A stretch of 64,000 nt of DNA, taken from positions 5,165 through 69,164 of IMG/VR virus record IMGVR_UViG_3300044798_000325; one strand, given 5' to 3'. The notes under the pieces are model-generated. The model ran no database searches and was not told where the DNA came from. It saw nothing but the letters and a program-made list of their open reading frames with translations. The DNA is from a virus. Position numbers and translations under genes: made by a program. Positions 2,247 through 47,914 of the stretch are shown piece by piece; within the stretch, counting starts at the first letter, position 1, and each line of letters begins with the position of its first letter.

Positions 2247-2256
2247 GAGCGCGAAC

Positions 2257-2418: not shown

Positions 2419-2419
2419 G

Positions 2420-3205: not shown

Positions 3206-3214
3206 GAGTGACGG

Positions 3215-3433: not shown

Positions 3434-3434
3434 A

Positions 3435-14265: not shown

Positions 14266-14269
14266 GAAT

Positions 14270-15919: not shown

Positions 15920-15931
15920 AGGAGAATCGAG

Positions 15932-18918: not shown

Positions 18919-18930
18919 CCGATAGGAGGC

Positions 18931-20049: not shown

Positions 20050-20079
20050 CGCCAATTAACATCCGCAAGAGGTCGTATA

Positions 20080-23000
20080 ATGGATCTGAATTCGTCCGCA
20101 AGAAGTCCACTATCGCTGTCCAAGTCCTTTTATGATGACATCACGAAGGACATTCCCTCTCCTGTCTCGAAGGATTTCTATGACGCTGTCTCAAAACCAG
20201 TAGAGGCAAAACAGGTCCCTGTTACCCCGGCCCGCTACGAGATGGCGTCGCCGGGAGAGATCGCCGAGACTGTCGGCGCGATCGGCGAGGCGGTGATCAG
20301 GATCCCCCTGCAGGTTGCCGGTGCAACCGCGAGTGCGATCCGGGGTGGATCACGAGAAGCCATAGCTGACAAAAACTCCTTCCTGACCAGGATCATCGAC
20401 ACCGCCAACAAAGACGCAGAGGATTTCCAGAAGAAATACGCCGACAACAAGGTGGTCATCGCACCGCTTACGAAACTCGGCCTTCCCGCCGATTTGGACA
20501 CGCAAACGATCACACGAGCCCCCCAACAGGCGGCATTCTCGGCGGTGAGCGCTGGTGCCGGTCTCGCAGCGGGCCTCGGCACGGCGGCAATCTCCGGTCC
20601 CGCGGCACCCATTGCCGGACGTGCGGCTGGTATGGCCGCATCCGGTGCGGCAGGATACCGGATTCAAAAAGATATGTCAGCCCAGCAGTTATACGCGAAA
20701 CTCAACGAAACCAGTATGAAGGCGGTGGGGAGAGAACTGACCCCGGAAGAATGGAAAACGGCCTACGATCGGAACGAGGGGCTCCTGGTCGAACAGGGTA
20801 TTTCTGAAGCCATCCCCGAAGCCATCGGGAACTTGGTCGGGTTTGAGCTGTTTTTTGGAGCGGCTAAAAACATATTCGGCAAGCAGCTCGCGAAGACGGT
20901 TATCGGGAAGACCCTCGGCAAATATGGGGCGGGAGCTGTCGGCAAGCTCCTGGCAGAACAAGCGACGGAGCAGGCCACGGAAACAGTGTCGCAGCAGTGG
21001 CAGCATAACCTTGATCTGGAAATGGGGCTTTCTCCTGGCGCGACGAAGCGTTCATGGACCAGTTTTGACGATCTGAGACAGTCCAACAAGGAGATCTTCT
21101 CTGACATCCTTCTTCTCACCGCGGGAATGGGCGGCGCCGGACTCGTGGGTGGACACATCCAAGCCAAGATGGACACGAAGGCATCGGCTCAGCTCGTGAA
21201 GAACGTTGTCGCCGAGAACAAGTTCGGGTCGATCCCCAATGAATTTCTCCCGGCCATGTACGAGCACGCGCAAGAACTATCAGATAAGCGTCCACAGGAT
21301 AAGGGCCTGACCACTGCAAGAGACGCCTTCGCGACCGAGATGGACAAGCGCGGCATAGACTTCGACATGACGAGCAAGTTCAAGGAATACCTTGCTCTGG
21401 ACGCGGAGATAAAGACGGAGGATGCCACAGGCGAGGATGTGGCAAGATGGGTCTCTCTACGGGATGAATTCAATGAAAAAAACATCAGCCCGGATCTCTA
21501 CCAGCAGTATTTGACCTACCAGTCGGACATCAACAAAGCCGTTGGACTGCAAAAACTCATCGCGACGGGCAAGGCGACGGATCCCCAGCGGAAAGAATTC
21601 AACCGGCTGGCCGGCGCGGTTGCCTCCAAGGCCACGATGTTCGGGTTCCCCGAGGAAGTTCTCGACTCTACCGGTGTTGAAAAGGGCGGCGTGGTCAGAA
21701 AGCCCCTGGGGCCAGCCAAGGGGGCGGCGAGGGATATTCTCCTGGCAGACGAACCGGCAGCCAAGCGGAAGAACCTCACGGCGAAGGACATCTTAACGGA
21801 AGGGGATGTCGACATCCAGTCCGAAGATGATCTGACCCCCGAGGCCCTGGCTGACATCGACAAGAAATTGAAGATCGCGGGCACGGGCGGCGCGAGAACG
21901 CCGCTGAATGTAGCTGGGGAAACTCCGGCAAAGGTTCTGGACATCACGAAAGAGGTCAAGACCCAGGATAAAAAGACGTTCGATCTCTGGGACACCCAGG
22001 AGACCGGGACCCCGCCTTTCGTTCGGACGAAGGTGGAGAGCCTATTCGCGGAAGGCGGCACGGCGGCGGTCCTTGATGAATACCGGGGCGAAGATACTGT
22101 CAGTGCATATGCCCGGTATCGGCTCGGGATGTTGGAGAAAACCGCCGTGGATAAGAAGACCGCCGAAGCGCCCGCAGCCCAAGGTGCCGCACAAGAAACG
22201 GGTTTAGCGAACCAGATCGCAACCGGCAATTTGGTGGAAGACTTTACGTTTCCGGAACATTATTCTCCTATGGACCTGAATGGACTTTGGGATGAACTTT
22301 ATATGGCCAGCGATGATATTGCGGCCAAGAATAAACCAACCATCGATGCCCTTGCCCAGGAACGGGACGCACTGAAATCGGACCGCGGTAAAGAAGCGGT
22401 TGCACGGAAGAAGCAGATCGATGAAGAGATCGGGAACCTTCGGGCGGAATCGCAGATTGTCACCCGCCATGCGGAAATTGCCTGGCAGTATGCCCAGGAG
22501 GACCTGGCCCGAAAGGTCGTAGCAAAGTTGAAAGCAGAAGGAATTGAGGCCGACAACGATACGGTCTATGACGCCATCGCTACCCTGGCGGACGGACGTA
22601 TGAATGAACAGGGTTGGAAGCAGCCTTTACTGCAGCAAGTGATTGATTCGGTAAAGGGAGGGGAAGCACCCACACCAAAGTCGGCCCGAGAGAAATCGGA
22701 TGAAGAGGTCAAACAATACCGGGATGCAGGACATAATATCAACGATAACGGCGTCTATAATGAACCAGAAAAGATCTCCATCCCATTCAGCAAGTCATCC
22801 GGAAGGGAGGGCAGCATCCGCATAGCGGAAGGCCCTGACGGGAAATTCCGCATTGGCGTCAATATCTCGAAAAAATATGGCGACTACGAGGGGAGCGGAA
22901 ATGCCCCAGGTATCGACGGCACGCCATACGATACGCGAGCCGAGGCGATCAAAGCCGGCATTGACATAATAAGGAGCCGTACAAAAGACGACGACTCCAA

Positions 23001-26000
23001 AGGGAAAGCCGCCTTGGTAGAATTGGCAAAGTTCGAGAAAGAGCAAGCCACTGAGACCAAGGCCGCAGGCACGGGCGGCGCGAGAGGACCCGTGGATGCC
23101 GTTGAATCCGCACCTAGGAAGATCGTGACGGTCATCAGAACGGAGCACGTCGATAGAAGCAAAGCCAGCGCAGCGGACCTGGCAGCAGACTACAAGGCCC
23201 GTGGACTCGATAGGCATCTGGCATGGGATGAGTTCATCAAGGACCGAATACTGAAACCGGAGATTGATGCTAAAGTTTTCTATGCCCTTTTCGACAAGAC
23301 ATCCCCTATCCCCCTGGTCGGAAAGAGAACGTCAGAAGAAGTATCCTTTGTTCCCACGCATCGCAGGATTTCAAGCGGTGAGCTTGTCCAGGCAGAACCC
23401 CCAAACGAGAGCGGTATTGCAAAAGTCATCACGGAATCCGGGAAGGCGGAATCCGACCACATCAGCAACTTAGCTTCGCTGGGAAAGAAGGCCCCGGAGA
23501 AGATCGGCCGGCAGACCAAAGAACCGTGGCAGATGACGAGGGGAGAGTTTAGGAATCAGCCAAATGTCTTTTCCGATGCTCAGGCGTATGCTCAACACTA
23601 TACGGAAGTTAAACAAGCCCTCTCCGAAGGCAAGCCCGTCCCCACCGAAGTCCTGAAAGACTACCCGGAACTTGAAAAAACGGAAGAACCCACGGAGATT
23701 AAGGCCGCGGGCACCGGCGGCGCGAGAGGCCCGAAGGCGGGGACCGTCAAGGCCCCTGAAGCAGCGAAGACAGAAAAACCTGTTCCTACCGCGGCAGAAT
23801 TAAAATCAAAGGAGGAAGAGGGTAAATCAAGGGGCGTCAAGAAGTATCTGCTCGAACATCTTGATGAAGCCATCGCCGCCCGGACAGCTTATGAGAACAA
23901 TAAGACCGAGGACGCCGGACCCCTCCACGTCCTCATCGACGTTCCCATGGACGGAAAGTTCCGGATATTGAACACGAAAGAGAACCTGGAGAAGTTCAAA
24001 AGGAAAGTGTCGGGGATGAAGGTGACGGCGGCGCTGAACAAGCTCCCGCAGCACTCCGACAAACCCACAGGCAAGTCCACGGATCTGATCACAAAAGAAG
24101 CGGAAGCGGAAGTCTCCGATTACTGGACGAAAAGGAGTGAGTGGAAGGCCAGATACGAAGCAATCCCGACAGAGGTTGAAGCTGCCAAGGCTCGCCTCGA
24201 CCGTTACAACGAGATCAAACGCAAGGTTGACGCCAAGGAGATCACCCTGAAGCAGCTCGGAGAGGATGCGAAGGCCGCATCGAATGAAGAAAATGCGGGT
24301 CCTGAAGCATGGAGAGATTCATGGTTCGGGAAGACCCCGACGTACAAAGACCTCACGGACCGGATCAAGGAAATAGAAAAGGAAATCAGCGATCTGGAAG
24401 CGTCAAGGCCGGAGATAGAGACCACCATCAAATCGTATTATCCCGGCCTCGCGAAAGAGATGTTTGAGGGGAAGGCAGTAGGGAAAGCGGGAGAGGAGAA
24501 GGCCCCGGCCGGGGCAACGGCGGAAGTCAAAGAACCGTGGCAGATGACGAAGGAGGAATACCGGAACGGCGATGTAAAACTCGTCGCTGCCCAGAAAGAT
24601 CTGGATGCGGCCAATGCCGGACTTGGAACGGGAAAGTGGGAACACGCCGGGGTCAGGTTAAAAAGAGTTGAAGCGGCAAAAAAGCGATGGTCCAAGGCAT
24701 GGGATGGCGCAGACAAGACTCACGGGGAGGCTGTCCGCCAAGCCCTCGCTGAAGGAAAACCCGTTCCCGAATCCGTCCTGAAGGATTACCCGGAGTTTCA
24801 GAAGGCCCCCGAAGAGATCAAGGCCGCCGGTACGGGCGGTAAAAGAGGCCCGAAGGAGGAAAAAGAGAGCGCCGCCTCTGGCAACGAACAGGCCGAAATA
24901 AGAGACCGGCTCAGGGCGCAGAATGCGCGAGAAGCCGAATTTGAATACCAGAAAAGGCGCATAGCCCTTTTGGAGGATGCGGACAAGGTTTCGCAGGCGG
25001 AGAAATTTTCGCAGGAGGATGCCAAGAGATTTCTCTCTGATCTCGATGCTTCCCCCGGCGATGATCCTGCGGCAAGGGAGGCTCTCTATGCAAAGTATCC
25101 TGAGATCGCCCCCCCGAAGGGAGAGGCACAACCGGTCGCGGCGGAAAAGAAAGAAGCCCCTTACGCGGCAGCCGTGGGGAAAATAGCGGGCAAGGCAGAC
25201 CGGGCTAAGGAGCGCGGATATGAGTTTGCTTACGGAGAGACAGCGAAAGGGTCCGAGCTTTATTGGGACATGGTTGGCATCTTCTCTGGCGCAAGCGCGG
25301 ATAAGTTGGTTGAGGCCGGGATTATCATCAGGAAAATACAGGCGGAAGCGCCCCAGGCCGACATCCTGAAGGAGATCGCCGAGATTTCAGATGAGGACCT
25401 TGATGCCCTGCTCGACGTGCCGGAAAAGAAAGAAGCCGCACCGATCATATTCCAGATCGACGACATGGTCAGACCAAAGGCCGGGAGTGGAATATCGGAA
25501 AAGAACGCTGGCCGGGTCCTTCATATCTTTACCGCGGCGGATGGCGTACAATCCATACGGACGGAAGGAAGCGGGAAGATTCACTTTTTTGCCAAGCACT
25601 TTGAACTCGCTTCCAAAGAAGCAACGCCCTCTGACGAAGCAGTCAAACGGCGTTCAGAACAGTTGACTGAATTGTCGAAGGACCTGACGCCGTTTTCCAA
25701 GACCATGCCCGCGAAGCCTACCCCGTCAGAAATGGGGGTACGGAAAGAGAGTCCGACCATGAGACAGGCGACGCTCATGGGCCGCACCGTTTGGACAAAT
25801 GGGAGCTATATTGAAAACTCAGAACTTGACCCTTACCCGAAGATGCAAGGCCGGACACTGGAAACGGGAGGGCTGGCTAACGGCAATATCATCTGGAATC
25901 AAGCGAAAGACTACGATGTCATAGTTGAAGGGCCGTTGGCGCTCCTGACGCGAGACAGAGAAACGATAGAAAAAGAGATATATCTTTTTGACCTCGGTGC

Positions 26001-32000: not shown

Positions 32001-35000
32001 CCACGGCGATATGGGATCGCAGTTAGAATGGGACGGAGCCCGCGGGCAGTACAAGGTCATCACCACAAACCGCCGGATCGTCAATGCTGGTCGGCTACTG
32101 GCTACGGCGTATCAGAATATCGATAGCGTCCGGGCAGACGATACGCCTGTCAAAAGGCCGATTATCCGGGGAGGGGAGCCGCAACGGGTAAAGGTGGCCC
32201 CCAACCAATATGTCGAGGATTACAAACGGATCATCCTGGAGCGATGCGCCGGAATAGAAGCGGACCCGAAAAATGCAGAATATGAGGGTGTCCCCGACAA
32301 CATGCTCCGAATCATCTCCAACATGAGCAAGGTGGCTATCGACCAGCGCCTTGATCACCACTATGCCAACACCGAGATGCAGCAGGATTCAAAGATCGCC
32401 ACAGCATCTAAAATCATGTATCGGCGATGGAAAGAAGAGGCGGCGCATAAGGGCGTTCAGCTTGTCTTTGCAGACCTGGGTATCCCCGGCAAATACGCAG
32501 ATAAATTCAAGTATAAGACCGAAGATGAAATTTCCAAATTAAACCCCGAAGATCTGACTCTTTACAATGAAGAAATGTTTGAACACGAAAGCGCGTCTGC
32601 CGGGTTTGATACATACGAGGGGTTAAAAAAGGAGCTGGTAAAGTTAGGGATTCCTGAAAATCAGGTTGCATTCATTCACGACGCTGACCATACCAACAAG
32701 GAAAAGAAGGCAGCAAACCTTCGCACACTATTCAAGAAAATCAACGCTGGAGATATTCGTGTCCTGATCGGATCTACCAGTAAGGCGGGTACGGGGGTCA
32801 ACATTCAGGGCCGCGTGTCGGACATCCATCACCTTGATGTGTGGTGGAATTTCTCTGCATGGGAACAGCGCAACGGGCGTGGCATCCGGGCCGGGAATCT
32901 GTATGCCAACGAGGGAATGCCGGGAACCTACATCTGGAATTATGTCACCGAAACAACGGTGGATGCTACCCGGTGGGACAAAGTCTTCGCCAAGGGGAAG
33001 GTCCTCAATGCCGTTTTGGGTGGAGACATCAACCTTGATGTGATCGAGGACATCAGCGACGAGACCATGAGCGCGAAGATGATGGCGGCTGAAGCATCCG
33101 GCGATCCGCTCATGTCTACCCAGGCGACACTTCTCCAGAAGGTGCAGGGGCTTCGGTTCGAGCAGGCCGCTCATCTCGACGTTGTCCGACGGTCGAGAAT
33201 GGATCTGGCTGCCATTCCCGGTCGGATTGAAGCTATGGAGAAAAGCATAGTCGATTACCAGCACAGCCGTGGCATTATGAGCAAGGTAACGGCGGTGCGG
33301 TTTATGGGTGACGACCGGACTCTGGTACTTGAGAAGCACGGGAAGGAGATCGCCGAGGCGCTTGAAAAGGCAGTCATGGCGGACACCGGTTCATGGACGG
33401 AGAATAAAAAGGCTACGCTGTTGGTGTTCGGCAGCCACACAGAGACAGAAGTTGTTGAAACAGTAGAGGGAAAGGACGGCGAGCAAAAGGAAAAGAAGAC
33501 GAAGAAATACGCCTTTGTCCCTCTTCCCGCGAAAGCCGATATCACGGGAAAATCAGCAGACCCCTATGGGCGGCGGCTCTTGATGTCCGGGGATATCATC
33601 AGCAGCGACCGGAATTTGGCCGACATAAAGGCTTCTTTGGGGAAAAAAGGAATCGAAGCCACCGTGGATATCAAGGCCAATGTGTCCAGGACGGTTACGG
33701 AATTCCTGTCATGGCTGAACAGCAGCGAAAAAAGCGCGAAGGAGAGGATCGAGGAACTCAAAGACAATACACCGAAATTGCGGAAGGTTATCGACACCCC
33801 TTGGGTGAAAGTAGACGAGCTTGCGACGAATGACAAAGAGCTGCGTGAAGTAGAGGCGAAAATGGCCGCAAGAGGGATTGCCGCCGGAGATCCCATCGCC
33901 GGAATTCCAATAGATAAATACAAGGGTGTTATCCCCGTTCTTGAAGATGTGGCGGACAAAGACGGGTGGTCGTTTCACGATGGGATTGTTTACCCGCACC
34001 AGAACACAACAATCGGCGTTCGCGGCAAGCAAGACCTCAGCCGTTTTCTTAAAAGCGGTAAGCTCAAGCCCCACATAGCGTCCAGTTACAGCGCTCCCGA
34101 CACCCTGAATGCTCTGGACGGAGGCAAACCCCAGTCTCCCGCAACGAAGCCGATAGCCTACACCACGATCAATAACGAAACCCGGCTCTGGGTGCCTGCC
34201 GGGGGGTCCTATGTAACCGTTGATCCGGTTGAGTGGAATCTCCTTCAAAGAATAATCGGGAAAGAGGGGACATGGCATTACGAGTCACGAAGCATGGGCG
34301 AGAGGTTCCTGGTCCACGTTTCCGAGAAGAGTGAGAGGGACGCATTTATCTTGGCGAAGCAAGCCAGTTATGTACCACAGGGGGTGAGGGATATCGACGA
34401 CAAGGCCATGAAGGGCGCAGCCCCGCCGGCAGGGAAAGTACAATACTCCGCCGCCCAGGACCAGACCCCAGCGCCGACCCTGGCCGACGTTCAGGAGATC
34501 TTCAAAGGGCAGGAGGTTTGGGAAGGTCCTGACGGAACGATATTCATAAAAACCCGTAGCGGTGCCGCTCTTTCCGTTATCGGCGTTGACAATATATCCG
34601 TAAGTGAAATCAATTTCCGAATGGGTTATAGCCGAAAAATCGGCTCTGGTGAACGTGTTGTCGGCGGTTATGGAAGGAATGAAGAGGGATGGATGGGGGT
34701 TATCAAGCTCATCAAGGATGCAGCAGGAAAGGTCACTCTCGCCCACGAATCCGCTCATTTTATGGAGGATTTTGGTATCATCAACGCCGAGGATGCGTCG
34801 ATCCTTCGCGGGCATATCAAGGACCTCGTTCGCTCGGGCAAGCGGAAGACCGCCAACGAGGACGACATTGGGGGGGCTGAGGACCGGGCAAACTTCCTGG
34901 CCGATGCCTTGACTCAGGCGAAGCCTCCGGGCGGCCTGGTCGGGTTGATCGTCGCCAGGGTTCGGAAATTCCTCGATCGGCTCATGGAGGCGTTCGGTAT

Positions 35001-38000
35001 CAGGACGGCGGGGGCCGTGACGAGGGACGTGAAGAGTGGGCGGATCTTCGAGCGGGAAGGGCAGGGCTCGTCGTTTGCTGATGAGGCTTATTCTTTGGCC
35101 CCGGCTACCATAAAGGCGTATGACGAGGCACTTTCCGTCCACGCATACATCTCTCCGCGGGTGAAGCCATCACTCAGCGCCCAAGAAAAGACCATCCGGG
35201 ACAATGCCTATGGAGTCAAAGGAATGGACCCGGTCGTGTTGGATGGTGTCGCCAAGGAAATGGCGGCACTCATCCCCAAGGAGGCGGGAAAGTCGGCGAT
35301 ACTGGTCCCGATACCCGGACATACCGGGGATACGGCAGCGAACGTCGCCCTCGCGGAACGGATTGCAGCGATCACGGGCAGCAGGGTGGCAGACGTACTC
35401 AAGCGGCAGGCTGGACAAAGTCAGCGGGATGCTCGCGTAGCCGGGCGGCGTACCATGAAACCCGTCGAGTTCGGTATGGTCAGTACGGAAACACTCGACG
35501 GAGATAACGTCTTTTTCGTTGATAATGTGATTTCTTCGGGAGCAACGATCCGGGCAGCGCGTGATGCGGTAGGCGGCGGCAAGGGGCTGGTCTACGCAAA
35601 ATCTAATCCGAAAGGTGAAAAGTACACCATTGGAACCATGGACCTGGAATTACCAAAGTGGCTCGGCGACAAGGTCAAGCAGGCGTTGAAGAAGGATGCG
35701 GTCGCCTCGATTCTCATCGATGCCGGACCTATCCAGTCCGGTCCGCTCGACGGCGGCTGCAGGGTTCTGGCCAGGGCCTTAAAGAGAATCGAGCCGAGCG
35801 GCAAGATAATCACCATCGAAGGGCAGCTCAAAGACGGGACCTGGCAGGCAGAGCACTACGGCTTTGAACTGGACGGAGGGATGATCGACGGTGATGGGTA
35901 TGCGGCATCTCGCGAGGCATGGGCGAAACGCTTCGCAAAGAACGAGAGTCTCGACAGTCCGTATCGGATTACCGAGGGGGAGGTCCAGAGTGAAGACATT
36001 CCGCAGGATGCTCCAACCGAAAAGAAGCTGGCAGCCGCCTTAGAGAAGGAGCTGGCTCCTGACGAAGCATACAGGGAACCCCGCGCGGAGCAAGGAATTG
36101 CCGTCTACGAACATCTCCCAGTTTTCGCAATTACGGAAAAGGGGTTGACAAGAAAGCCCCGTAGAGCTCTTAATAATAATCAAGAGGTATCCAATGGACA
36201 AGAAGTATCCGGAACCACGTTGGTGCGGGCTGACAATGCCCTTGCCGCCGGACAGGGGACCGATGATAAACGGAAAATACCCGCCCCTGGAGGAAGGGTG
36301 CTTCCCTATGTTCCCGAACGGGGTACCCTCCCCACCGTCAAAAGCGAACCCATCGGAACCTGGAAATCCTCCCGCAGAAAAATAACCAGCCTGGAAGACG
36401 CCGCCGTTATTGCCCGCGACAACCTGTTCCGTGATGCACAGGAAGTCTTTGTTACAATCGTTACCGACAAATCTGGAAAGATCCTTGCGGTCAACCAACA
36501 CGCCACCGGAGCCCCTAACCAGAGTCAAGTCTACGCTTATTTTGCTGCCGGACAGATATTGAATATCGAGGGCGCGTCCAAGGTATGGACTGTCCATAAT
36601 CACCCTTCCGGACAAGCAAAATTGTCCGAGGCCGACCTGAGCGTAAGCTCAAACATAGGCGATCTTATCGCGGACGCCGGGATCGAAAGTATGCCGATCA
36701 TTGCGATCACGCCGTCCAGATATTCCGATAACATGTGGTCGAGCGAACCCCTTCCACCAAAAGAACCCGCAATTTACAAACTGCCCGTACTTGGGAGAAA
36801 ATTTGACCAGTCCCCGGAAGGTCTTGAAAGCATAGGAAGCCAGAATGAATTTGAGGAGTTTGGCCGGTTATATATGAAAGAGGGCGGGATGGTTCTGGTT
36901 TCCGCTCAGCGTCAGCCCGTTGCTTTAATCGCTATCGATGACTACTCAAAACTCCGCCCCCTTCATACGGAAATCCTTCGTGAAGCGGAAAAGAGAAATG
37001 CCGTAGACTTCATGATCTATAGCCCTGAAAAGACATTAACGAAGGCTGATATTGACAATCTGCTTTCCTTCGCGAAAAACACACAGCTTGAGTTCACGAC
37101 TGTCCGAGACAGGGCTGGAGACCACTACGAAAAGATTAAGGAACTTTGGGGGGCTGTAAGAAATAGTAAGGAGAGAAAGGTTTTTTATTCCGTCCAGAAG
37201 GACGCCATCGACAACACTTCCATTTTCCCCGAAGCGAATGAGCGTCTGAATCTTCCTGCTGATGTCATTGAGCTTGCGGAAGCAAGCGGAGTCAATCCGA
37301 AGGACATTAAAATTATAAAACTTGAAGACCGAACGGAGTATTTCAGTCGTTACGGCGTCCCGAACTCGATCAACGAAGGGTACGGGTATTTCGGCGGCAG
37401 ATCCGGAAGTTTGTTCATAGACGACGATACCGGGAAACCGGTGGCATATTTGCCAGCAGCAAAGACAGGAGCAGAGGGAAAACTCCAATACTCCGTCCAG
37501 AGGGACACGATCGACAGCTCCTCGATCTTCCCCGACGTCAACGAACGCATAAAGATGGCCAAGGGTGTCAAGTACGCCTCTCTGAAGGACAGGGCGAAGG
37601 ATGCCCTCGTCACCGGTTGGGAGCATTTCACCCGGCATTTCCAGCACCTTGAACCGGAAACAAACGGCGCGGTCATCGATGTCTTCCGCAAGTTCCAGGA
37701 TGTTCCCGCGTGGGCGAAGGATGAAACCGTTCGGCAGCTCTCCGGCTTCATCGGAAGGCTCTCTCCCCAGGGCCGGGACGTGTTCATGATGAACATTCTT
37801 TTACCGGACATGATCCGGGACATCGAAGATGGCACCCTGGTCGTTGAAGATGAGGTCGGACTTCCGTTCGGTTACAAAAACAGGGATCAGGTACAGCAGG
37901 ATTACGACCACTTCCGGGCCATCGCCGAGGGGAGTACCGCGATAATGGAAGCCCTCGACAGGCGGAACACCTTCATGGCCTCGTTGACGGACCAACTCAT

Positions 38001-40521
38001 CCAGCACAAGCTCCTGAAAAAGGAGGTCGCCAACGACCCGACAGCCTACTTCCATCACCAGGTCCTCGCCTACATGAATTACAAGGAGAACCCGAATTGG
38101 GGGATGTCTTCACAGGACGTTCGTACCCACCGAAAGGGCTGGCAGGTCGGGCGGAAGGGCTCCCAACTTGATTACAACACCGAGTATGTCGAATCCGAGT
38201 TCGAGATTATTTCCCAGGCATTGACTCAGATCGAGACGGTCAAGTCTCTGAAAGAGATCGAGCGCCTGGCTGACATCAAGCCGGAACTGGAGGCCGAGGC
38301 CAAGGACCAGAATATGGCGACCTTCAGGCGAAAGGCTTTCACGAACCCCTTGGATGACCCGCTTCTGCCTTACCGGGTGAAGATTGCGATGGGATTCCAG
38401 AAACTCGCGAAACTGTTCACGACCGAGAACGACATGGGCTCCCTGCCGATGGAGTTTGACGATGTCATCGAGCACATCGTTGACCAGGAGGAGCAACGCC
38501 GGGCGGCCAAAGAGGACGAGATCGAGTTCGACCCCGTGCCTCACCCCCGGATGTTCGCCCTGCTAAACTACCTGATCAACCACGAGGGGCCGGGATCTAT
38601 GCCGGCGGCCATGATTTTCAAGGCGATCGCAGCGAGGAACGCCTTCATTAAGCAGGTCGTCGGCAAGGATTGGGTAACTTACCGCGACCTAATCCCCGAG
38701 GGGTACGTTGCCCATAAACCGGAAACCGGGAGCACGTTTTATTTCACAAACAGCATTGCAGACCAGGCGCTCGCCCAGGTATTGGCCGGGCACAAGAATC
38801 TCCCGGACGCCGTGCGGCAAGTCATGGCGCGGGGCCGGGATGAAGAGTGGGTCGTGAAGGAGGGGATCTCCAAGACCCTGAACGAATTCCGGCCGGCCAT
38901 GTCGGACTCGCTCCCGGCGAAGATGTCGAAAAGTATGCTGACGGCCTGGAAACAGTGGATTCTTATGAACCCTTTCCGGGTCATCAAATACAACATCAAC
39001 AATATGTCGGGCGACCTCGACATCGCCCTCGCCTACGACCCGAAGATCATCACGGATTATTTCACACAAGCCTTCAAGGACCTATGGGCGGCATCCAGGG
39101 GGAACGCATCCGAGACCCTGATGGACGAATTGTCCGGGCTGACTAAGCGCGGCGTTGTCGGGTCCGGCATGACGGCGATGGATATCCCCGAACTGGGAGA
39201 TGTCAAATCTGTCAAGGGCCTCGTGGACTTCTTCGACGGCAAGAGCAAGAACGCCCTGTCCCGTTGGTGGACGATGAGCAAGAAACTCTCGACCTTACGG
39301 GAAAACATCCTGCGGCTGGCGGCGAATCGGTATTTCCTGGACCGACTGGCGAAAGGAGATATCGTCTATGGAGCCTCGCGCAAGGAAGAGGTTGACGCCA
39401 TTGAAAACCGAGACGACAAGGCCGCAAAGCTGGCGCGAGAACTGATCGGCGACTACGGCAATATCAGCCATGCCGGACAGTATATCCGGGAGCGGATGAT
39501 CCCCTTCTACTCTTGGCTTGAGATAAACGCGCCCCGGTACGTCCGGTTATTCAGAAACCTGAAGGATGAAGGCGGCGGTGGTATCGGCGCCATGGGCGGC
39601 GTCCTGGCCTGGAAGACGACAAAACTTGCCGTCAAAGCCTCCGCCCTCATGGGGCTGGTCATGTTGTGGAACGCGGCGTTCTTCCCCGATGAAGAGGATG
39701 AGCTGCAAGAGGCCGGGCGAGAACAGCTTCACATGATCCTGGGGCGCCGGGCTGACGGCTCCATCATCACCCTCAGATTCCAGGGCGCCCTATCGGATGC
39801 CCTCTCGTGGTTCGGGATGGGCAACCCCGTTGAGCAGGCCAAGAAGGTTGTCAGCGGGACAAAGGGCGCCGGCGACCTGGCGAAGGAAGTAGTCAAAGCC
39901 GCGCCTCTAAAGCTCTTCCAGGGATTCAGGCCGGAGCCGAAGCTGCTATATGAGACCCTGTCCGGGCAGAGTTTCTTCCCGGATCCGATGCACCCGCGAC
40001 CGATCCGCGACACGACGGAGCATATCCTCCGGACGTTCTCCCTGGACCGGATCTACAATCAGGCGTCGGGGAAGCCAAAGCAGGGCGGCACCTGGGCGAC
40101 CCAGATGTACCGGGACATCCAAAGTCTGGCCCTCACCGAGGCAGATCCGGGCGAACAGGCATACTACACCAGCCGGAAATATATCTTTGACTGGCTGGAT
40201 AAGCAGGGGAAGGAAAAGCCCGCGGCCATGCCGACAAACAGGAGCAATTCCCTCTACTATTACAAGCAGGCGTTGAAATTCGGTGATTTTGACGCAGCGG
40301 AGAAGTATCTCAAGAAGTACCAAGACATGGGCGGGAAGTTGCACGATGTCATGGGGAGCATCAGGCGGGTTCACCCGCTGGCGTCTTTGAGGCTGGCCGA
40401 CCGGTACAAGTTCAAAGTGTCCCTGTCACCAGAGCAGCAGGAGACGCTATCCGTGGCGACCGCATGGTACAAAAAGCATTATGTCGATACTTACCAGGAA
40501 CAAAGAAAAAGGGGGATGTGA
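20080..40521 (+). CDS. Giant (6,813 aa) DarB-like polyvalent injected protein
   Basis: LPD1 (FGFKGVGFG...AYDAFKDLA...AHEWGH, ~27410-28170); DarA-C-like (~28333-28494); N6-MTase (YSGWGG, YYTP, DPAVG, NVPF at 29326); SF2 helicase (GHEVGTGKT 31237, DEAH 31732, QRNGR 32866); HESAH at 34744; PRTase-like VDNVISSGAT at 35518; JAB/RadC HNHPSG..SEAD at 36595; LPD38-like C-terminus (DY...IPFYSW). Confidence 0.9.
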   Translation: MDLNSSARSPLSLSKSFYDDITKDIPSPVSKDFYDAVSKPVEAKQVPVTPARYEMASPGEIAETVGAIGEAVIRIPLQVAGATASAIRGGSREAIADKNSFLTRIIDTANKDAEDFQKKYADNKVVIAPLTKLGLPADLDTQTITRAPQQAAFSAVSAGAGLAAGLGTAAISGPAAPIAGRAAGMAASGAAGYRIQKDMSAQQLYAKLNETSMKAVGRELTPEEWKTAYDRNEGLLVEQGISEAIPEAIGNLVGFELFFGAAKNIFGKQLAKTVIGKTLGKYGAGAVGKLLAEQATEQATETVSQQWQHNLDLEMGLSPGATKRSWTSFDDLRQSNKEIFSDILLLTAGMGGAGLVGGHIQAKMDTKASAQLVKNVVAENKFGSIPNEFLPAMYEHAQELSDKRPQDKGLTTARDAFATEMDKRGIDFDMTSKFKEYLALDAEIKTEDATGEDVARWVSLRDEFNEKNISPDLYQQYLTYQSDINKAVGLQKLIATGKATDPQRKEFNRLAGAVASKATMFGFPEEVLDSTGVEKGGVVRKPLGPAKGAARDILLADEPAAKRKNLTAKDILTEGDVDIQSEDDLTPEALADIDKKLKIAGTGGARTPLNVAGETPAKVLDITKEVKTQDKKTFDLWDTQETGTPPFVRTKVESLFAEGGTAAVLDEYRGEDTVSAYARYRLGMLEKTAVDKKTAEAPAAQGAAQETGLANQIATGNLVEDFTFPEHYSPMDLNGLWDELYMASDDIAAKNKPTIDALAQERDALKSDRGKEAVARKKQIDEEIGNLRAESQIVTRHAEIAWQYAQEDLARKVVAKLKAEGIEADNDTVYDAIATLADGRMNEQGWKQPLLQQVIDSVKGGEAPTPKSAREKSDEEVKQYRDAGHNINDNGVYNEPEKISIPFSKSSGREGSIRIAEGPDGKFRIGVNISKKYGDYEGSGNAPGIDGTPYDTRAEAIKAGIDIIRSRTKDDDSKGKAALVELAKFEKEQATETKAAGTGGARGPVDAVESAPRKIVTVIRTEHVDRSKASAADLAADYKARGLDRHLAWDEFIKDRILKPEIDAKVFYALFDKTSPIPLVGKRTSEEVSFVPTHRRISSGELVQAEPPNESGIAKVITESGKAESDHISNLASLGKKAPEKIGRQTKEPWQMTRGEFRNQPNVFSDAQAYAQHYTEVKQALSEGKPVPTEVLKDYPELEKTEEPTEIKAAGTGGARGPKAGTVKAPEAAKTEKPVPTAAELKSKEEEGKSRGVKKYLLEHLDEAIAARTAYENNKTEDAGPLHVLIDVPMDGKFRILNTKENLEKFKRKVSGMKVTAALNKLPQHSDKPTGKSTDLITKEAEAEVSDYWTKRSEWKARYEAIPTEVEAAKARLDRYNEIKRKVDAKEITLKQLGEDAKAASNEENAGPEAWRDSWFGKTPTYKDLTDRIKEIEKEISDLEASRPEIETTIKSYYPGLAKEMFEGKAVGKAGEEKAPAGATAEVKEPWQMTKEEYRNGDVKLVAAQKDLDAANAGLGTGKWEHAGVRLKRVEAAKKRWSKAWDGADKTHGEAVRQALAEGKPVPESVLKDYPEFQKAPEEIKAAGTGGKRGPKEEKESAASGNEQAEIRDRLRAQNAREAEFEYQKRRIALLEDADKVSQAEKFSQEDAKRFLSDLDASPGDDPAAREALYAKYPEIAPPKGEAQPVAAEKKEAPYAAAVGKIAGKADRAKERGYEFAYGETAKGSELYWDMVGIFSGASADKLVEAGIIIRKIQAEAPQADILKEIAEISDEDLDALLDVPEKKEAAPIIFQIDDMVRPKAGSGISEKNAGRVLHIFTAADGVQSIRTEGSGKIHFFAKHFELASKEATPSDEAVKRRSEQLTELSKDLTPFSKTMPAKPTPSEMGVRKESPTMRQATLMGRTVWTNGSYIENSELDPYPKMQGRTLETGGLANGNIIWNQAKDYDVIVEGPLALLTRDRETIEKEIYLFDLGADHPLFVAKRLYDHFYMRYGNLILKWSGDSKDKLPMLSVYDGDEMVGAMMPIADNSIESVKAIKEALALKKGKHPLLEGRGSILPSAKPAKALDDILADVAKEGVEGAGEALKGLYELFGGASLKSFPGGFDEDTYLKAKPHFEAALDHFIKVGKGLREFAASIVQQFGDAIRPYLKQFIKDRRDGVTEENAEEEGEVINLDENTGNGEGGARTRRKLTDQEKAEKKAKEVAAEEKKARKAAMGEFKNVGYVYDPEKLNQKIKDKPPKSAAKIILDEMVPGKLWAIDFPEGATPGVVRVKDQIQKHFLTFKEYLTENRDRLRYMSGKTIDDKIEHWLNFREGSIDKLKEWANEYGKTMQPVIDAFNGQASIINVIGRLQDTVLVGARQEDGRFPPYTEVQHSFVGLMSTRDYVQRPHSLYAFLTDSWQRLLEDENDILLSEIDINKRGRNKMVVRSGLPDYREDVELKKTEDFQAPFGFKGVGFGEEGWINQEERNRVIPAAYDAFKDLAATIGAPDNGMSLGGELAVQFANLGHKAKGAAAAYFPTVQTINFTRDNGDGTMAHEWGHGLQDLAADDAKTEIEKVVNTFHHVYDFEAGTRLVDDLLAKDSMFLKRMVSSKKQQRIEAVKNEVTSRFEDTVRKDTDYYSTAQQMDPDYTARAQEMWARAFEAYIYDTLQGKNNYLVNDFVAAGRVGGKAGVGTRLVYPSGKERETFNATIKHLLDGLVWDESGKPSLKGDYVSIEKANELMLQLQLRYLLEQVEARYTAIWASEPSKDGYFWYRYDDTSFGPMMQPDGYDGYDKVHTSEGQNGTGAVAYLTQLHPDAILDYKLSNIQYEGENPTYISKERGGIDVTLQDDGTEALEEVPPKPDGSPDEEGDVRSGDRGSGDSGVPGTFEHGKQRGTTGSSEGDSAEGVHPSPAGNYRITDLTLNDPKSVPVRFGLNLSAVKVLNLVESENRIPTDAEKDIMAQYSGWGGMSELFAYEPTAAWAGKAELLKAELTENEIRDAASSSTSSYYTPVVVGQFMWKLAQRLGFEKGVVLDPAVGANGLFLGTIPADLSQGTALQGIEMDTLSARIASKLYGLASIENKAFQDVKKPNNRFDLTITNVPFERITPTDLKHNKGGHTLHNYFINKMLNLTAPGALSMMITTSNTLDTVGAHLTEYAEKAHFVGAIRLPSGIYSATKVATDILVFRKKIEGGKFTGIPTEEWTTAGEDESTGLTINNYFLKHPEMVAGKLEKITGRYGNEGLRVVGDGDLQANLERIAAAFPDKIVEREAVREAKSIDDIISAPGTIKEGGLYINDKDEVCLKEDGEEMKLPVATASEQKKAAIARGYVHILDQVRTVLRAQKTETDDAVVKAEQTKLKKFYDQFVKKFGPINDPKNHDVYVDYTDSAWVIALEEYDPDTGKVTKIADIFTKNITGIASRPDRADTDHDALAMALDEFGYPNLEYMARLRNSDVASVMAGVGDKIIENPETGFLETMDEYLSGNVKRKLAVASEMAQSNPEYARNVSLLEAAQPAEIPQHRITARIGASWISPEHLAEFVRDKMGLRHGLHAVFNFSPVSNEWSMSFHGEEHYRGRGKGVSENKAEVQRQIAAAKGSVEATTLWGTQRMDFFELMKCALQGKRPQVTVYVEGKQYLDEVATQAAEVKLQDIQLEFGRWLFADTFRSDQAVKRFNDLINTSVPMNADGSHLTFPGKSMWMVTPKEKATLGVGDALVFYPHQMNAAWKYLKNGNLYLGHEVGTGKTVTMGLIAMEAKRLRGKKKVLYVTLNDSTMGQAVAEIKNLYPMANILPVRVSTNEQRKQRSLQKIALNDFDIAIMRQQDYDRIGLSPESERVFIEEEILELREILEEAKRDGARILEQDIQVQLHALEEKLKAPSVYDEAKKKNLFFDDLGIDLLIVDEAHKYKNVPYATRLTRITGLNPAGSPTAKDFFRKTQYLNAQFPKKDGIVLASGTALSNSIAELYNIQRMLQPLEVKRQGVWSFDRWIANHGDMGSQLEWDGARGQYKVITTNRRIVNAGRLLATAYQNIDSVRADDTPVKRPIIRGGEPQRVKVAPNQYVEDYKRIILERCAGIEADPKNAEYEGVPDNMLRIISNMSKVAIDQRLDHHYANTEMQQDSKIATASKIMYRRWKEEAAHKGVQLVFADLGIPGKYADKFKYKTEDEISKLNPEDLTLYNEEMFEHESASAGFDTYEGLKKELVKLGIPENQVAFIHDADHTNKEKKAANLRTLFKKINAGDIRVLIGSTSKAGTGVNIQGRVSDIHHLDVWWNFSAWEQRNGRGIRAGNLYANEGMPGTYIWNYVTETTVDATRWDKVFAKGKVLNAVLGGDINLDVIEDISDETMSAKMMAAEASGDPLMSTQATLLQKVQGLRFEQAAHLDVVRRSRMDLAAIPGRIEAMEKSIVDYQHSRGIMSKVTAVRFMGDDRTLVLEKHGKEIAEALEKAVMADTGSWTENKKATLLVFGSHTETEVVETVEGKDGEQKEKKTKKYAFVPLPAKADITGKSADPYGRRLLMSGDIISSDRNLADIKASLGKKGIEATVDIKANVSRTVTEFLSWLNSSEKSAKERIEELKDNTPKLRKVIDTPWVKVDELATNDKELREVEAKMAARGIAAGDPIAGIPIDKYKGVIPVLEDVADKDGWSFHDGIVYPHQNTTIGVRGKQDLSRFLKSGKLKPHIASSYSAPDTLNALDGGKPQSPATKPIAYTTINNETRLWVPAGGSYVTVDPVEWNLLQRIIGKEGTWHYESRSMGERFLVHVSEKSERDAFILAKQASYVPQGVRDIDDKAMKGAAPPAGKVQYSAAQDQTPAPTLADVQEIFKGQEVWEGPDGTIFIKTRSGAALSVIGVDNISVSEINFRMGYSRKIGSGERVVGGYGRNEEGWMGVIKLIKDAAGKVTLAHESAHFMEDFGIINAEDASILRGHIKDLVRSGKRKTANEDDIGGAEDRANFLADALTQAKPPGGLVGLIVARVRKFLDRLMEAFGIRTAGAVTRDVKSGRIFEREGQGSSFADEAYSLAPATIKAYDEALSVHAYISPRVKPSLSAQEKTIRDNAYGVKGMDPVVLDGVAKEMAALIPKEAGKSAILVPIPGHTGDTAANVALAERIAAITGSRVADVLKRQAGQSQRDARVAGRRTMKPVEFGMVSTETLDGDNVFFVDNVISSGATIRAARDAVGGGKGLVYAKSNPKGEKYTIGTMDLELPKWLGDKVKQALKKDAVASILIDAGPIQSGPLDGGCRVLARALKRIEPSGKIITIEGQLKDGTWQAEHYGFELDGGMIDGDGYAASREAWAKRFAKNESLDSPYRITEGEVQSEDIPQDAPTEKKLAAALEKELAPDEAYREPRAEQGIAVYEHLPVFAITEKGLTRKPRRALNNNQEVSNGQEVSGTTLVRADNALAAGQGTDDKRKIPAPGGRVLPYVPERGTLPTVKSEPIGTWKSSRRKITSLEDAAVIARDNLFRDAQEVFVTIVTDKSGKILAVNQHATGAPNQSQVYAYFAAGQILNIEGASKVWTVHNHPSGQAKLSEADLSVSSNIGDLIADAGIESMPIIAITPSRYSDNMWSSEPLPPKEPAIYKLPVLGRKFDQSPEGLESIGSQNEFEEFGRLYMKEGGMVLVSAQRQPVALIAIDDYSKLRPLHTEILREAEKRNAVDFMIYSPEKTLTKADIDNLLSFAKNTQLEFTTVRDRAGDHYEKIKELWGAVRNSKERKVFYSVQKDAIDNTSIFPEANERLNLPADVIELAEASGVNPKDIKIIKLEDRTEYFSRYGVPNSINEGYGYFGGRSGSLFIDDDTGKPVAYLPAAKTGAEGKLQYSVQRDTIDSSSIFPDVNERIKMAKGVKYASLKDRAKDALVTGWEHFTRHFQHLEPETNGAVIDVFRKFQDVPAWAKDETVRQLSGFIGRLSPQGRDVFMMNILLPDMIRDIEDGTLVVEDEVGLPFGYKNRDQVQQDYDHFRAIAEGSTAIMEALDRRNTFMASLTDQLIQHKLLKKEVANDPTAYFHHQVLAYMNYKENPNWGMSSQDVRTHRKGWQVGRKGSQLDYNTEYVESEFEIISQALTQIETVKSLKEIERLADIKPELEAEAKDQNMATFRRKAFTNPLDDPLLPYRVKIAMGFQKLAKLFTTENDMGSLPMEFDDVIEHIVDQEEQRRAAKEDEIEFDPVPHPRMFALLNYLINHEGPGSMPAAMIFKAIAARNAFIKQVVGKDWVTYRDLIPEGYVAHKPETGSTFYFTNSIADQALAQVLAGHKNLPDAVRQVMARGRDEEWVVKEGISKTLNEFRPAMSDSLPAKMSKSMLTAWKQWILMNPFRVIKYNINNMSGDLDIALAYDPKIITDYFTQAFKDLWAASRGNASETLMDELSGLTKRGVVGSGMTAMDIPELGDVKSVKGLVDFFDGKSKNALSRWWTMSKKLSTLRENILRLAANRYFLDRLAKGDIVYGASRKEEVDAIENRDDKAAKLARELIGDYGNISHAGQYIRERMIPFYSWLEINAPRYVRLFRNLKDEGGGGIGAMGGVLAWKTTKLAVKASALMGLVMLWNAAFFPDEEDELQEAGREQLHMILGRRADGSIITLRFQGALSDALSWFGMGNPVEQAKKVVSGTKGAGDLAKEVVKAAPLKLFQGFRPEPKLLYETLSGQSFFPDPMHPRPIRDTTEHILRTFSLDRIYNQASGKPKQGGTWATQMYRDIQSLALTEADPGEQAYYTSRKYIFDWLDKQGKEKPAAMPTNRSNSLYYYKQALKFGDFDAAEKYLKKYQDMGGKLHDVMGSIRRVHPLASLRLADRYKFKVSLSPEQQETLSVATAWYKKHYVDTYQEQRKRGM
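28556..28780 (+). CDS. Overprinted 74-aa gene in the +1 frame of the giant gene (TnpV-like helical protein)
   Basis: AAAGGGGTGG RBS 5 nt before the ATG; MLHFKMMAQKHWKKYLPSLTAALMKKG...AAKEIVLKEYILLPPE looks like a folded amphipathic protein, while the main frame here is a disordered G/D/E/S linker. Confidence 0.65.
   Translation: MLHFKMMAQKHWKKYLPSLTAALMKKGTFDQETEEAATAACRELSSMVNRGAQLEAAKEIVLKEYILLPPETTE
36145..36188 (+). promoter_or_regulatory. Candidate internal sigma70 promoter plus RBS inside the giant gene
   Basis: TTGACA (36145-36150), AT-rich CTTAATAATAAT 18 nt later, GAGGT 5 nt before the out-of-frame ATG at 36194. The -10 match and spacing are imperfect. Confidence 0.4.
36194..36385 (+). 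CDS. Candidate overprinted Pro-rich 63-aa peptide (+1 frame of the giant gene)
   Basis: Preceded by promoter-like and RBS signals; lies in the linker before the JAB domain; no recognisable homology. Confidence 0.35.
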   Translation: MDKKYPEPRWCGLTMPLPPDRGPMINGKYPPLEEGCFPMFPNGVPSPPSKANPSEPGNPPAEK

Positions 40522-40832
40522 TGGCGGCGATTAGAATGAGGATACTAAGCGGATTAGTTCTTTGCACCACAGTGCTTGTCTGGGCGGTCATTGCTTTAGC
40601 CGCCGTGACTCAGGCGTCATCCGATTCCGTGCCGTCATGGTATGAGCATGTCGATTTGATGCAAGCCGTCATCGCCGGACTTTTTCTACTGACCCTATGG
40701 TTACTGGTACGCACCCTGACAAAGATCGACACGAATCAAAGCCTGCTGTTCAAAAAAGTGGATGAACTCTGTAAGGATTTTTACACCTTACAGGGGGAGC
40801 ATCAAGCCTTGAATAATAAATGTCATCAATAA
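40521..40832 (+). CDS. Membrane protein of the lysis cassette (holin/antiholin-like)
   Basis: TGATG coupling to the giant gene; two hydrophobic segments and a short coiled-coil tail. Confidence 0.6.
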   Translation: MAAIRMRILSGLVLCTTVLVWAVIALAAVTQASSDSVPSWYEHVDLMQAVIAGLFLLTLWLLVRTLTKIDTNQSLLFKKVDELCKDFYTLQGEHQALNNKCHQ

Positions 40833-40841
40833 GGAGGGTGT

Positions 40842-41135
40842 ATGACGACTTTTTTTGGAAAGGTCAAGCGGATCAGGACAGAGCTGACCTTGCTTTTGGT
40901 GCTGGCAATCGCGATTGCGTTCATCCCCCCCGAGGCCCGGCTGGGGCTCTTGGGGCTCTTCATAACGAAGGGGATGTTTGTGACGATGGGCGTTCTTTAT
41001 GCTCATGCCTCCCGGAAGTTCCTGTTCCCCTATCTCGACATGGAGGACCTCATCACAGAACATCACTGGGGGGGCGTGGCGTTCTTGACTGCCTATTACG
41101 GGGTGGTGATATGGGCGTTCGCTGTTGGTGGCTGA
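40842..41135 (+). CDS. Putative holin (3 TM)
   Basis: AGGAGG RBS; 97 aa with three hydrophobic segments; directly upstream of the endolysin. Confidence 0.7.
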   Translation: MTTFFGKVKRIRTELTLLLVLAIAIAFIPPEARLGLLGLFITKGMFVTMGVLYAHASRKFLFPYLDMEDLITEHHWGGVAFLTAYYGVVIWAFAVGG

Positions 41136-47890: not shown

Positions 47891-47914
47891 GGTCGCTACC
47901 TCCTGTTGGGACAC

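Follow-up and report, generated by a model that had tools for sequence, protein, structure and literature searches.

A predicted 6,813-residue polyvalent protein with a DarB-like core, conserved ends and exchangeable cargo in a prophage-like element linked to Syntrophaceae

We wondered how a virus might benefit from a single protein of 6,813 amino acids (aa). Such a protein is encoded in the window analysed here, a stretch of 64,000 nucleotides (nt) that comprises bases 5165-69164 of the 69,164-bp IMG/VR virus record IMGVR_UViG_3300044798_000325 (classed linear; CheckV completeness 82%). A preliminary description had read the gene as one for a polyvalent anti-defence and ejection protein. Polyvalent virion proteins are thought to be the phage's first strike on host immunity, and hardly any of them has been dissected. 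Our analysis makes it likely that the giant gene belongs to a temperate phage, probably short-tailed and linked to Syntrophaceae, and that its product is a polyvalent protein carried in the virion and ejected.

An uninterrupted giant gene with a DarB-like core

20080..40521, + strand: giant open reading frame (ORF), 6,813 aa, 752.9 kDa, 29.6% of the 69,164-bp virus record
20067..20072, + strand: Shine-Dalgarno-like AAGAGG, 7 nt upstream of the ATG, read from the sequence
28558..33876 (aa 2827-4599), + strand: DarB-like core, by phrog_10089, Pfam and collinearity with P1 DarB

We asked first whether so long a frame is real. It is uninterrupted, as had been claimed, with 6,813 codons and no internal stop; the stop-to-stop frame counts 6,823 codons and opens just 10 codons 5' of the ATG. 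G+C along the gene is steady at 0.52-0.58. The window stems from a short-read metagenome assembly, and a chimeric joint, or a decaying pseudogene staying open by chance, would be the trivial explanation of the gene. The check for a chimera proposed earlier was carried out on the Logan contigs of run X1 and revealed no joint: depth was even at ~11 over 20300-40299 in 30/30 bins. Run X1 is the probable source of the record and hence not independent support for the assembly. Its pieces overlap, yet none of those listed spans the whole ORF; they end near 34,117-34,146, 35,231-35,294 and 39,085-39,228, and 62 nt (35,232-35,293) fall outside any listed piece. Runs X2-X4 gave short pieces of 90-99% identity that come from relatives, and were therefore not used as support for the exact assembly.

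The same architecture recurs elsewhere. A homologue search among proteins of 3,747-11,923 aa returned 13 matches, 11 of which (P0002-P0012; 5,106-6,695 aa) lie on other contigs and align collinearly with the giant protein over aa ~2060-4770 or more, and a relative of at least 4,347 aa sits within a closed 4.0-Mb Syntrophus sp. chromosome. A chance open frame of 20.4 kb is not credible, and the catalytic motifs are intact. An artefact is thus next to negligible as an explanation. The giant ORF is real, and its product is the longest family member found in this analysis. Against 50,697 phage records the ORF gave no megablast match.

The part of the protein that can be assigned most firmly lies mid-way. 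The profile phrog_10089 ('DarB-like antirestriction') scored 1069 bits over aa 2827-4599, with positions 1500-3212 of its 4647 matched. An N6-adenine methyltransferase (MTase) and a superfamily 2 (SF2) helicase had both been proposed and were both confirmed: Pfam N6_Mtase covers aa 2984-3172 with NVPF at 3083, and ResIII/DEAD (aa 3701-3892) is followed by Helicase_C (aa 4208-4272), the helicase motifs GTGKT (3724) and DEAH (3885) being intact. P1 DarB aligned with the giant protein in four collinear high-scoring segment pairs (E 3e-18 to 0.007) that take in the motifs of both enzymes, so that the dyad has the order known from P1, first the EcoKI/TaqI-like methylase and then the helicase. A tblastn search with the core matched 129 phage records, 10 of them from Burkholderia phages, at ~30% identity over ~1,500 aa. 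The top matches were giant 'DarB-like antirestriction' genes of VvAW1, POI1126, Itty13, PEp14, Pavtok, Atu_ph08, SopranoGao and Ralstonia phages. In the DarB-type dyad LPD36 is described directly N-terminal to the methylase (Iyer et al., 2017; PMC5512222); a Pfam scan of aa 2050-2850 returned no LPD36 at E<=5, in a general scan rather than a search aimed at LPD36 by name.

The same survey defines the polyvalent class, its delivery logic and the methylase-helicase dyad at its hub (PMC5512222). The giant protein unites a DarB-type methylase-helicase, zincin-like, phosphoribosyltransferase (PRTase)-like, RadC and LPD-type domains in one polypeptide, that is, several unrelated effector domains including the metallopeptidase, SF2/SNF2 helicase and N6A methylase hubs of the class, and its gene lies among phage packaging and late genes. 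This content supports the class assignment made beforehand: judged by its sequence, the giant protein is a phage polyvalent protein.

Comparison with P0002-P0012 divides it into five parts:

aa 1-~620: conserved N block
aa 620-2050: variable region
aa 2057-5008: conserved core
aa 5010-5793: variable C-side modules
aa 5793-6813: conserved C block

The first ~2,400 aa had been called mostly unassigned, and so they are. Not one Pfam family matched aa 1-2500, and for aa 1-2400 there was no Pfam, no NCBIfam and no significant PDB sequence match; the PHROG search gave just two weak coiled-coil-type matches there (E 7.6e-5 and 0.003), which we regard as compositional. PDB sequence searches with aa 1-2500 and aa 4401-6813 returned nothing meaningful. 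Pfam scans of three long and ten short pieces found nothing besides LPD1, methylase, helicase and RadC; Pfam negatives here refer to the Pfam copy used, which is without PF28553-PF28555, families listed for homologues. The NCBIfam scan gave no 'PLxRFG' family, a name borne by Klebsiella phage relatives. A DarA-C-like segment, also part of the preliminary description, found no support (BLASTP against P1 DarA, E >= 1.7; no DarA family match).

Late-block position, conserved ends and delivery

13720..20049, + strand: five ORFs without family (181, 549, 534, 495, 372 aa), candidate co-packaged or co-ejected proteins
40820..41695, + strand: SLT lytic transglycosylase gene, 291 aa, end of the last block common to close relatives
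20080..21876 (aa 1-599), + strand: N-terminal end domain, its core (aa ~57-430) a helical domain without Pfam family
37456..40518 (aa 5793-6813), + strand: C-terminal end domain, all-helical, with a hydrophobic helix at aa 6516-6536

How might such a protein reach its place of action? Up to 42.3 kb, every scanned ORF of the record is on the + strand. Upstream of the giant gene lie a head-closure Hc3 gene (phrog_8040, E 6.7e-40), two ORFs with 'virion structural' PHROG matches and a methyltransferase gene; downstream follow the SLT gene and a 186-aa ORF. The five ORFs directly upstream are syntenic in 3/3 related viral contigs. Giant DarB-like genes hold the same position in PEp14 and in Bcep22-like phages. 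Bcep22 gp75 is counted among the giant DarB-like virion proteins. Every Bcep22-like phage is stated to carry a 'massive DarB-like protein', and JC1 gp69 (4,515 aa, 22.1% of the genome) was detected by mass spectrometry in CsCl-purified virions (PMC9144972). PEp14 has the order 'internal virion' and 'virion structural' genes, a 4,914-aa gene, lysis cassette, integrase. Shared with these giants are the methylase and SF2 helicase core and the place as last and largest gene of the morphogenesis block, beside genes for wall degradation or lysis. The present protein differs in being 1,900-2,300 aa longer and in its other end domains, its motif-delimited N-terminal modules and its PRTase-like and RadC modules. 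PEp14 gp27 begins with an SLT and carries LPD37/LPD39 towards its C-terminus; the giant protein lacks these, and its SLT is a separate gene.

Two further systems are instructive. P1 DarB is packaged into the head and shields DNA from type I restriction (P1 record annotation; PMC5512222). It belongs to the same function class, and the preliminary statement that the giant protein is much longer holds, since it is three times the 2,255 aa of P1 DarB; here the DarB part is embedded mid-way in a larger polyprotein. The second is gp47 of the Stx phage phi24B (2,811 aa; LPD5, LPD1, MuF-C, LPD38), described as abundant in virions and invisible by cryo-EM, and proposed to be an ejection protein forming a trans-periplasmic conduit (bioRxiv 10.64898/2026.04.10.717836). 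Pfam finds LPD5, LPD1, MuF_C and LPD38 in gp68 of Stx phage 75/02 (2,793 aa). The giant protein shares with gp47/gp68 an LPD1-type zincin region (aa 2462-2562, 33% identity) and, to judge by fold, may share a long helical LPD38-type C-terminal part; Pfam LPD5, MuF_C and LPD38 match gp68 and not the giant protein, and gp68 is without the methylase-helicase. The head-closure family is also reported as shared, through phrog_8040 here and the homology to 933W described in PMC9144972, where portal, capsid and head-closure proteins of Bcep22-like phages are said to resemble those of E. coli phage 933W. This 933W link fits both the Hc3 match and the Stx-phage tblastn matches of aa 2462-2562. The kind of protein is already known from P1 DarB, the Bcep22/PEp14-type giants, Stx-phage gp47 and the 2017 survey. 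Distinctive are its size, the fusion of an LPD1-zincin/LPD38-like frame with a DarB core, RadC, the end domains and a repeated linker.

Cysteine content points in the same direction. The giant protein has 4 Cys in 6,813 aa (0.06%) and its homologues 1-9, and four of the five ORFs just upstream (181, 549, 534 and 372 aa) have none, whereas 17/25 other tallied ORFs contain Cys at 0.4-3.9%. P1 Dar proteins are Cys-poor too. By inference only, this depletion would fit proteins that travel unfolded through tail and periplasm. Two ORFs are Cys-rich by contrast: 858-2246 (+; 18 Cys in 462 aa, 3.9%; no family) and the SLT protein (10 Cys in 291 aa, 3.4%).

We then considered the two ends, for which the Pfam copy used holds no family; that both are widespread is new here. 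The N-terminal core has 373 representatives at E<=1e-3, in proteins 338-5,719 aa long that carry it at the N-terminus or close to it, and a Pfam scan of short members found 0 families in 10/10. AlphaFold2 (AF2) modelled aa 60-520 as long helices (pLDDT 80-95) for which the PDB offered no counterpart. Hydropathy peaks lie at aa 151-171 and 338-358 (both Gly/Ala-rich, N domain) and at aa 6516-6536 (C domain), and apart from a marginal one at aa 1732-1750 are confined to the end domains. The C block is the best-conserved part in seven of eight close relatives, with 90-93% identity in P0002-P0009 except P0007 (73%), against 78-85% for the core. The C domain alone ends 187 shorter proteins at E <= 1e-3; among the best 120 of these many different precomputed Pfam partners occur, or the domain is near-solitary, and RadC is present in 18/120. 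When 27 members were aligned, 50 columns proved invariant.

An LPD38-like end had been suggested, and it has indirect support. The all-helical AF2 model of the C domain (pLDDT 68.8) gave 55 BFVD matches at E <= 1e-3 (TM 0.2-0.5, to be read with the pLDDT of the query model), mostly to the final segments of proteins called 'large polyvalent protein associated domain', some bearing the name LPD38; against the PDB the model had no match. In the ESM Atlas the domain scored 0.98 to clusters with LPD38 in 61-96% of members. The Pfam model did not follow, as set out below, and the end can be called LPD38-like by fold and language model only.

Taken together, these data suggest the following course of events. 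The protein would be synthesised late and packed into the capsid with the small cysteine-free proteins encoded just upstream, and at infection it would be threaded unfolded through the tail. The two end domains might serve as a delivery chassis, for virion incorporation, envelope crossing or conduit formation, and the ~5,000 residues between them would be cargo acting in the first moments of infection. Within this cargo the DarB-like N6-adenine methylase and SF2 helicase could shield incoming DNA in cis against type I restriction, the two zincin-like modules could process the protein or cut host targets, and the PRTase-like and RadC/JAB modules may act on nucleotides or nucleic acids. Relatives would swap cargo modules, partly at a 13-residue linker. 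We infer packaging, ejection, anti-restriction and the roles of the ends from position and from relatives. The lineage shows a construction plan in which two conserved ends frame exchangeable enzyme cargo, partly delimited by the linker. If the ends are indeed a packaging and ejection chassis, they define the requirements for injection by a short-tailed phage and would mark out hundreds of cargo modules without annotation as candidate effectors against host defence.

Might its main role instead be structural, as an essential ejection or conduit protein comparable in function to T7 gp15/gp16 or a tape measure, with its enzymes accessory or devoted to wall and membrane penetration? The stronger conservation of the two non-enzymatic ends (C domain 90-93%, core 78-85%) speaks for this, as do the hydrophobic helices at both ends, the trans-periplasmic conduit proposed for phi24B gp47 in the source cited above, and the adjoining SLT gene, which in PEp14 gp27 is fused at the N-terminus. 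However, over 70% of the sequence consists of enzymatic or variable cargo, freely exchanged among relatives, the methylase-helicase dyad is of the P1 anti-restriction type, and the fold searches gave no match to a solved ejection protein. The two roles are not mutually exclusive, and we consider a mainly structural function unlikely.

Several results weigh against the proposal of a packaged, ejected polyvalent protein. BLASTP of P1 DarA, Hdf, DdrA and DdrB against the giant protein gave E >= 1.4, in a comparison with that protein and not with the other window ORFs; because no such homologues were found, the packaging route of P1 is not mirrored. PEp14 gp27 aligns over aa 2851-4390 only and has no BLAST similarity outside the core, and tblastn of the upstream ORFs against the PEp14 and Stx-phage loci found no match. 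Neither of the hidden Markov models (HMMs) of the end domains gave anything significant against gp68 and gp27. Pfam LPD38 (PF18857) did not match the giant protein at E<=5 by hmmscan while it does match Stx gp68, and hhalign of the C end with the LPD38-bearing end of gp68 reached a probability of 10%. Across the record the LPD38 model had no match at E<=10, a search in which the controls were silent too. Finally, no capsid, portal, terminase or protease genes are in view on the record with its CheckV completeness of 82%, and because capsid, portal and protease genes are absent from it, the short-tailed morphology is deduced from the Hc3 family and from analogy.

Linker, exchangeable cargo and catalytic modules

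21865..21903 (aa 596-608), + strand: linker copy 1, KLKIAGTGGARTP, bordering a stretch of pLDDT<50 (aa 603-644)
23053..23091 (aa 992-1004), + strand: linker copy 2, ETKAAGTGGARGP, at the start of a stretch of pLDDT<50 (aa 996-1036)
23695..23733 (aa 1206-1218), + strand: linker copy 3, EIKAAGTGGARGP
24814..24852 (aa 1579-1591), + strand: linker copy 4, EIKAAGTGGKRGP
21904..26247 (aa 609-2056), + strand: variable N-terminal cargo region, with modules that differ among homologues

What holds the variable region together? We found a 13-residue linker, EIKAAGTGG[A/K]RGP, in four copies. Copies 1 and 2, which fall within the AF2-folded part (aa 1-1200), stand directly after folded modules and border or lie in stretches of low confidence. 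The module between them (aa 704-994) has a confident AF2 fold of a coiled coil with a small beta sheet; further on, aa 1137-1209 resemble aa 1474-1582, an internal repeat. The variable cargo itself received no Pfam, PHROG or PDB assignment. Ten proteins of the lineage carry 2-5 linker copies each (10/134 proteins searched), and among 149 listed N-domain representatives merely 4 have it. All six frames of the rest of the 64-kb window are free of it.

Across 16 copies (12 distinct; from the window and the four related loci L032-L034 and L005) the residues A-G-T-G-G-x-R-x-P are invariant, with 2-4 synonymous codons at each invariant position. An invariant peptide written in varied synonymous codons indicates selection on the peptide and not only on the DNA. 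The linker Arg is AGA or AGG in 16/16 copies and never CGN, AGR making up 31% of the Arg codons of the gene; judged from sequence, the constant AGR codon fits common descent of the copies.

The linker coincides with borders of module gain and loss. Between aa 560 and 2040, 13 of 43 homology-block borders are no more than 15 aa away from a copy, where 11.6% would be expected (binomial p ~9e-4, for borders that come from related proteins and are not independent); the remaining 30 are away from linker copies. P0009 matches the giant protein except that it is missing the module enclosed by copies 2 and 3, and P0002 departs from the giant protein within copy 2. One low-depth contig of run X4 joins copy 1 to copy 3 in register, and one contig of run X3 departs right after copy 4; as these joints fall in repeats, they are weak evidence.

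It is possible, if doubtful, that the linker is a programmed signal at which the precursor is cut into separate effectors, and that, in the DNA, the same sites let co-infecting relatives cross over and exchange cassettes. The protease may then be the protein's own zincin or JAB module, or a head protease, and the injected polyprotein might be likened to a 'cargo rack' joined by standard connectors. In polymorphic toxins, border motifs that precede the toxin are known, such as VENN in CdiA and PxxxxDPxGL in Rhs. The comparison is by analogy only: both have a short invariant peptide at the border between a constant and an exchangeable part; families and delivery routes are unrelated, and here the linker is repeated up to five times per protein. 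Autoprocessing by embedded metallopeptidases is proposed in PMC5512222, whose main text has 0 occurrences of the word 'linker'; this was a look at that text and not a literature search aimed at the motif itself. The linker provides a direct, testable handle on whether giant polyvalent proteins are processed.

Two candidates lost support. The idea that the JAB domain or a Cys-peptidase is the dedicated protease of the GG-containing linker is weakened by relatives that retain the motif although they lack RadC (P0007 and P0012) or the Cys module (P0003, P0007 and P0009). A head-protease site common to other virion proteins is disfavoured because the motif is in no other window frame, on a record that does not include the head genes.

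The remaining modules flank the core:

27361..28170 (aa 2428-2694), + strand: zincin-like module, with a CLCA_X-like match, HEWGH at 2537 and Pfam LPD1 at 2624-2697
34462..35094 (aa 4795-5005), + strand: second metallopeptidase-like module, with a HESxHxxE motif
35107..35649 (aa 5010-5190), + strand: PRTase-like module, by weak profile matches and a PRPP-loop-like motif
35650..36087 (aa 5191-5336), + strand: unassigned Cys-bearing module, holding 1 of the 4 cysteines of the protein
36382..36711 (aa 5435-5544), + strand: RadC-like JAB domain with an intact JAMM motif
37255..37455 (aa 5726-5792), + strand: small inserted module, flanked by duplicated junction units at aa 5692-5725 and 5793-5826

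LPD1 had been recognised by its HEWGH. The domain stands (Pfam E 1.5e-12, above cut-off) and so does the motif, though not as one unit, HEWGH lying ~90 aa upstream and outside the LPD1 match. Both are within the NCBIfam CLCA_X-like match (E 1e-23; 84 bits against a cut-off of 260). With aa 1-2600 as query, tblastn matches were confined to aa ~2418-2600, and aa 2462-2562 matched 189 records, mostly of Stx-converting, Escherichia or Shigella phages, in large virion proteins of Stx/933W-type phages. The second HExxH was borne out as HESAH at 4889, within a module of ~200 aa that has no Pfam family match; HESxHxxE is invariant in 26/26 aligned sequences (25 homologues and the query). We discarded a MuF_C identity of this module: its HMM touches gp68 weakly at aa 1260-1292 (E 0.009) and not in the MuF_C region (1750-1837).

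Of the PRTase label, the motif part stood, with the PRPP-loop-like VFFVDNVISSGAT at 5144. The family matches are weak and all below cut-off: PyrR-type E 1.2e-4 (21.9 bits against 230) and Pfam Pribosyltran E 0.084 (12.6 against 26.3), with weak NCBIfam PyrR/APRT-type matches at aa 5067-5174. A tblastn search with aa 4701-6813 gave a single match, to the PRTase region, in virus Rctr197k. Cys/His/Asp motifs had been listed further on, and a catalytic triad was not confirmed: the module at aa ~5191-5336 contains one Cys, at 5227, and has close homologues only.

The JAB motif, by contrast, was verified as a RadC domain (E 5.8e-12; 46 bits against a cut-off of 22.1) with the JAMM signature HNHPSGQAKLSEAD at aa 5506 and a complete HxHx7Sx2D metal site. 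The 2017 survey reports RadC only from conjugative elements (PMC5512222). The giant protein resembles the class described there in its many effectors, its late-gene context and its hubs of MPTase, SNF2-type helicase and N6A methylase, and differs in having RadC in a phage-type protein; the survey is thus revised on one point, as RadC does occur in phage-type polyvalent proteins.

A second type of junction appears near the C block. Two copies of a 34-aa unit, K-[VL]-x-YSVQ-x-D-x-ID-x-x-SIFP-x-x-NER, enclose a 67-aa insert (window 37153-37557), whereas homologues have one copy and no insert. A relative of the insert is found in the N-terminal variable region of P0005. By this sequence pattern, unit and insert are a second junction type that appears to behave like the linker borders.

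Genomic neighbourhood and host link

2420-3205, + strand: C1q-domain ORF, fibre-like, candidate receptor-binding
3610-4830, + strand: Mtd_N and collagen-repeat ORF, fibre-like, candidate receptor-binding
46110-47015, low-G+C part: P63C-domain ORF
47012-47914, low-G+C part: IS1595 transposase
48389-50095, - strand: GajB (PADLOC E 4.9e-182)
50099-51853, - strand: GajA (PADLOC E 4.7e-161)
52012-53490, - strand: hsdM, type I restriction-modification (R-M)
53487-54962, - strand: hsdS, type I R-M
54964-57741, - strand: hsdR, type I R-M
59728-62004, low-G+C part: RecD2
63098-63577, low-G+C part: cpYpsA

Where does the element end, and in which host does it reside? The two closest relatives remain similar in DNA sequence as far as ~41,667, directly behind the SLT gene, and G+C falls from ~0.55 to 0.41-0.49 beyond ~41,700, where ORFs are on mixed strands. 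The stretch of ~41,700-64,000 is probably host flank or a variable island, and its Gabija and type I R-M genes may be host flank or a defence island beside the prophage. Neither an integrase nor a tRNA was seen that would mark the prophage border. The closest genomic relatives are a Syntrophaceae metagenome-assembled genome (MAG; 91% identity) and a complete Syntrophus chromosome (59%), and one protein match is named from a Syntrophales MAG. The source is most likely a prophage-like element, its phage temperate and probably short-tailed, with a link to Syntrophaceae. This extends the polyvalent class to an element linked to this strictly anaerobic group.

The transposase and the defence genes in the 3' third of the window would also be expected if the giant protein belonged to a conjugative or integrative element and were delivered by a type IV secretion system (T4SS). 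Pfam scans of 30 other window ORFs found no relaxase, coupling protein or T4SS family, however, and the genes immediately upstream, on the same strand, include those for head closure, virion proteins and fibres. Clusters that resemble the two end domains are 86-100% viral, and RadC, as noted, accompanies the phage-type C domain in 18/120 listed proteins. Delivery by conjugation is therefore very improbable.

The proximity of Gabija and type I R-M genes could in turn suggest a protein that is not packaged at all and works inside the cell that makes it or in the lysogen, where it might methylate progeny DNA or exclude other phages. Against this stand the position inside a late morphogenesis block, the end domains, which appear to be common to proteins detected in virions, the extreme Cys depletion common to the small neighbouring ORFs, and a 750-kDa fusion that would be unexplained for an intracellular enzyme. 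We regard an intracellular role as improbable, slightly less so than conjugation. All of these alternatives are less likely than a packaged, ejected polyvalent protein.

Between the fibre-like genes and the giant gene lie eight ORFs without any family. Mtd-type proteins are targeted by diversity-generating retroelements in BPP-1; no reverse transcriptase turned up among the scanned ORFs. At the other end of the giant gene, a 122-aa ORF (40464-40832, +; no family match) overlaps its last 58 nt and the start of the SLT gene. Further downstream, in the low-G+C part, a complete Gabija pair adjoins the type I R-M operon, ~8 kb beyond the putative anti-restriction gene.

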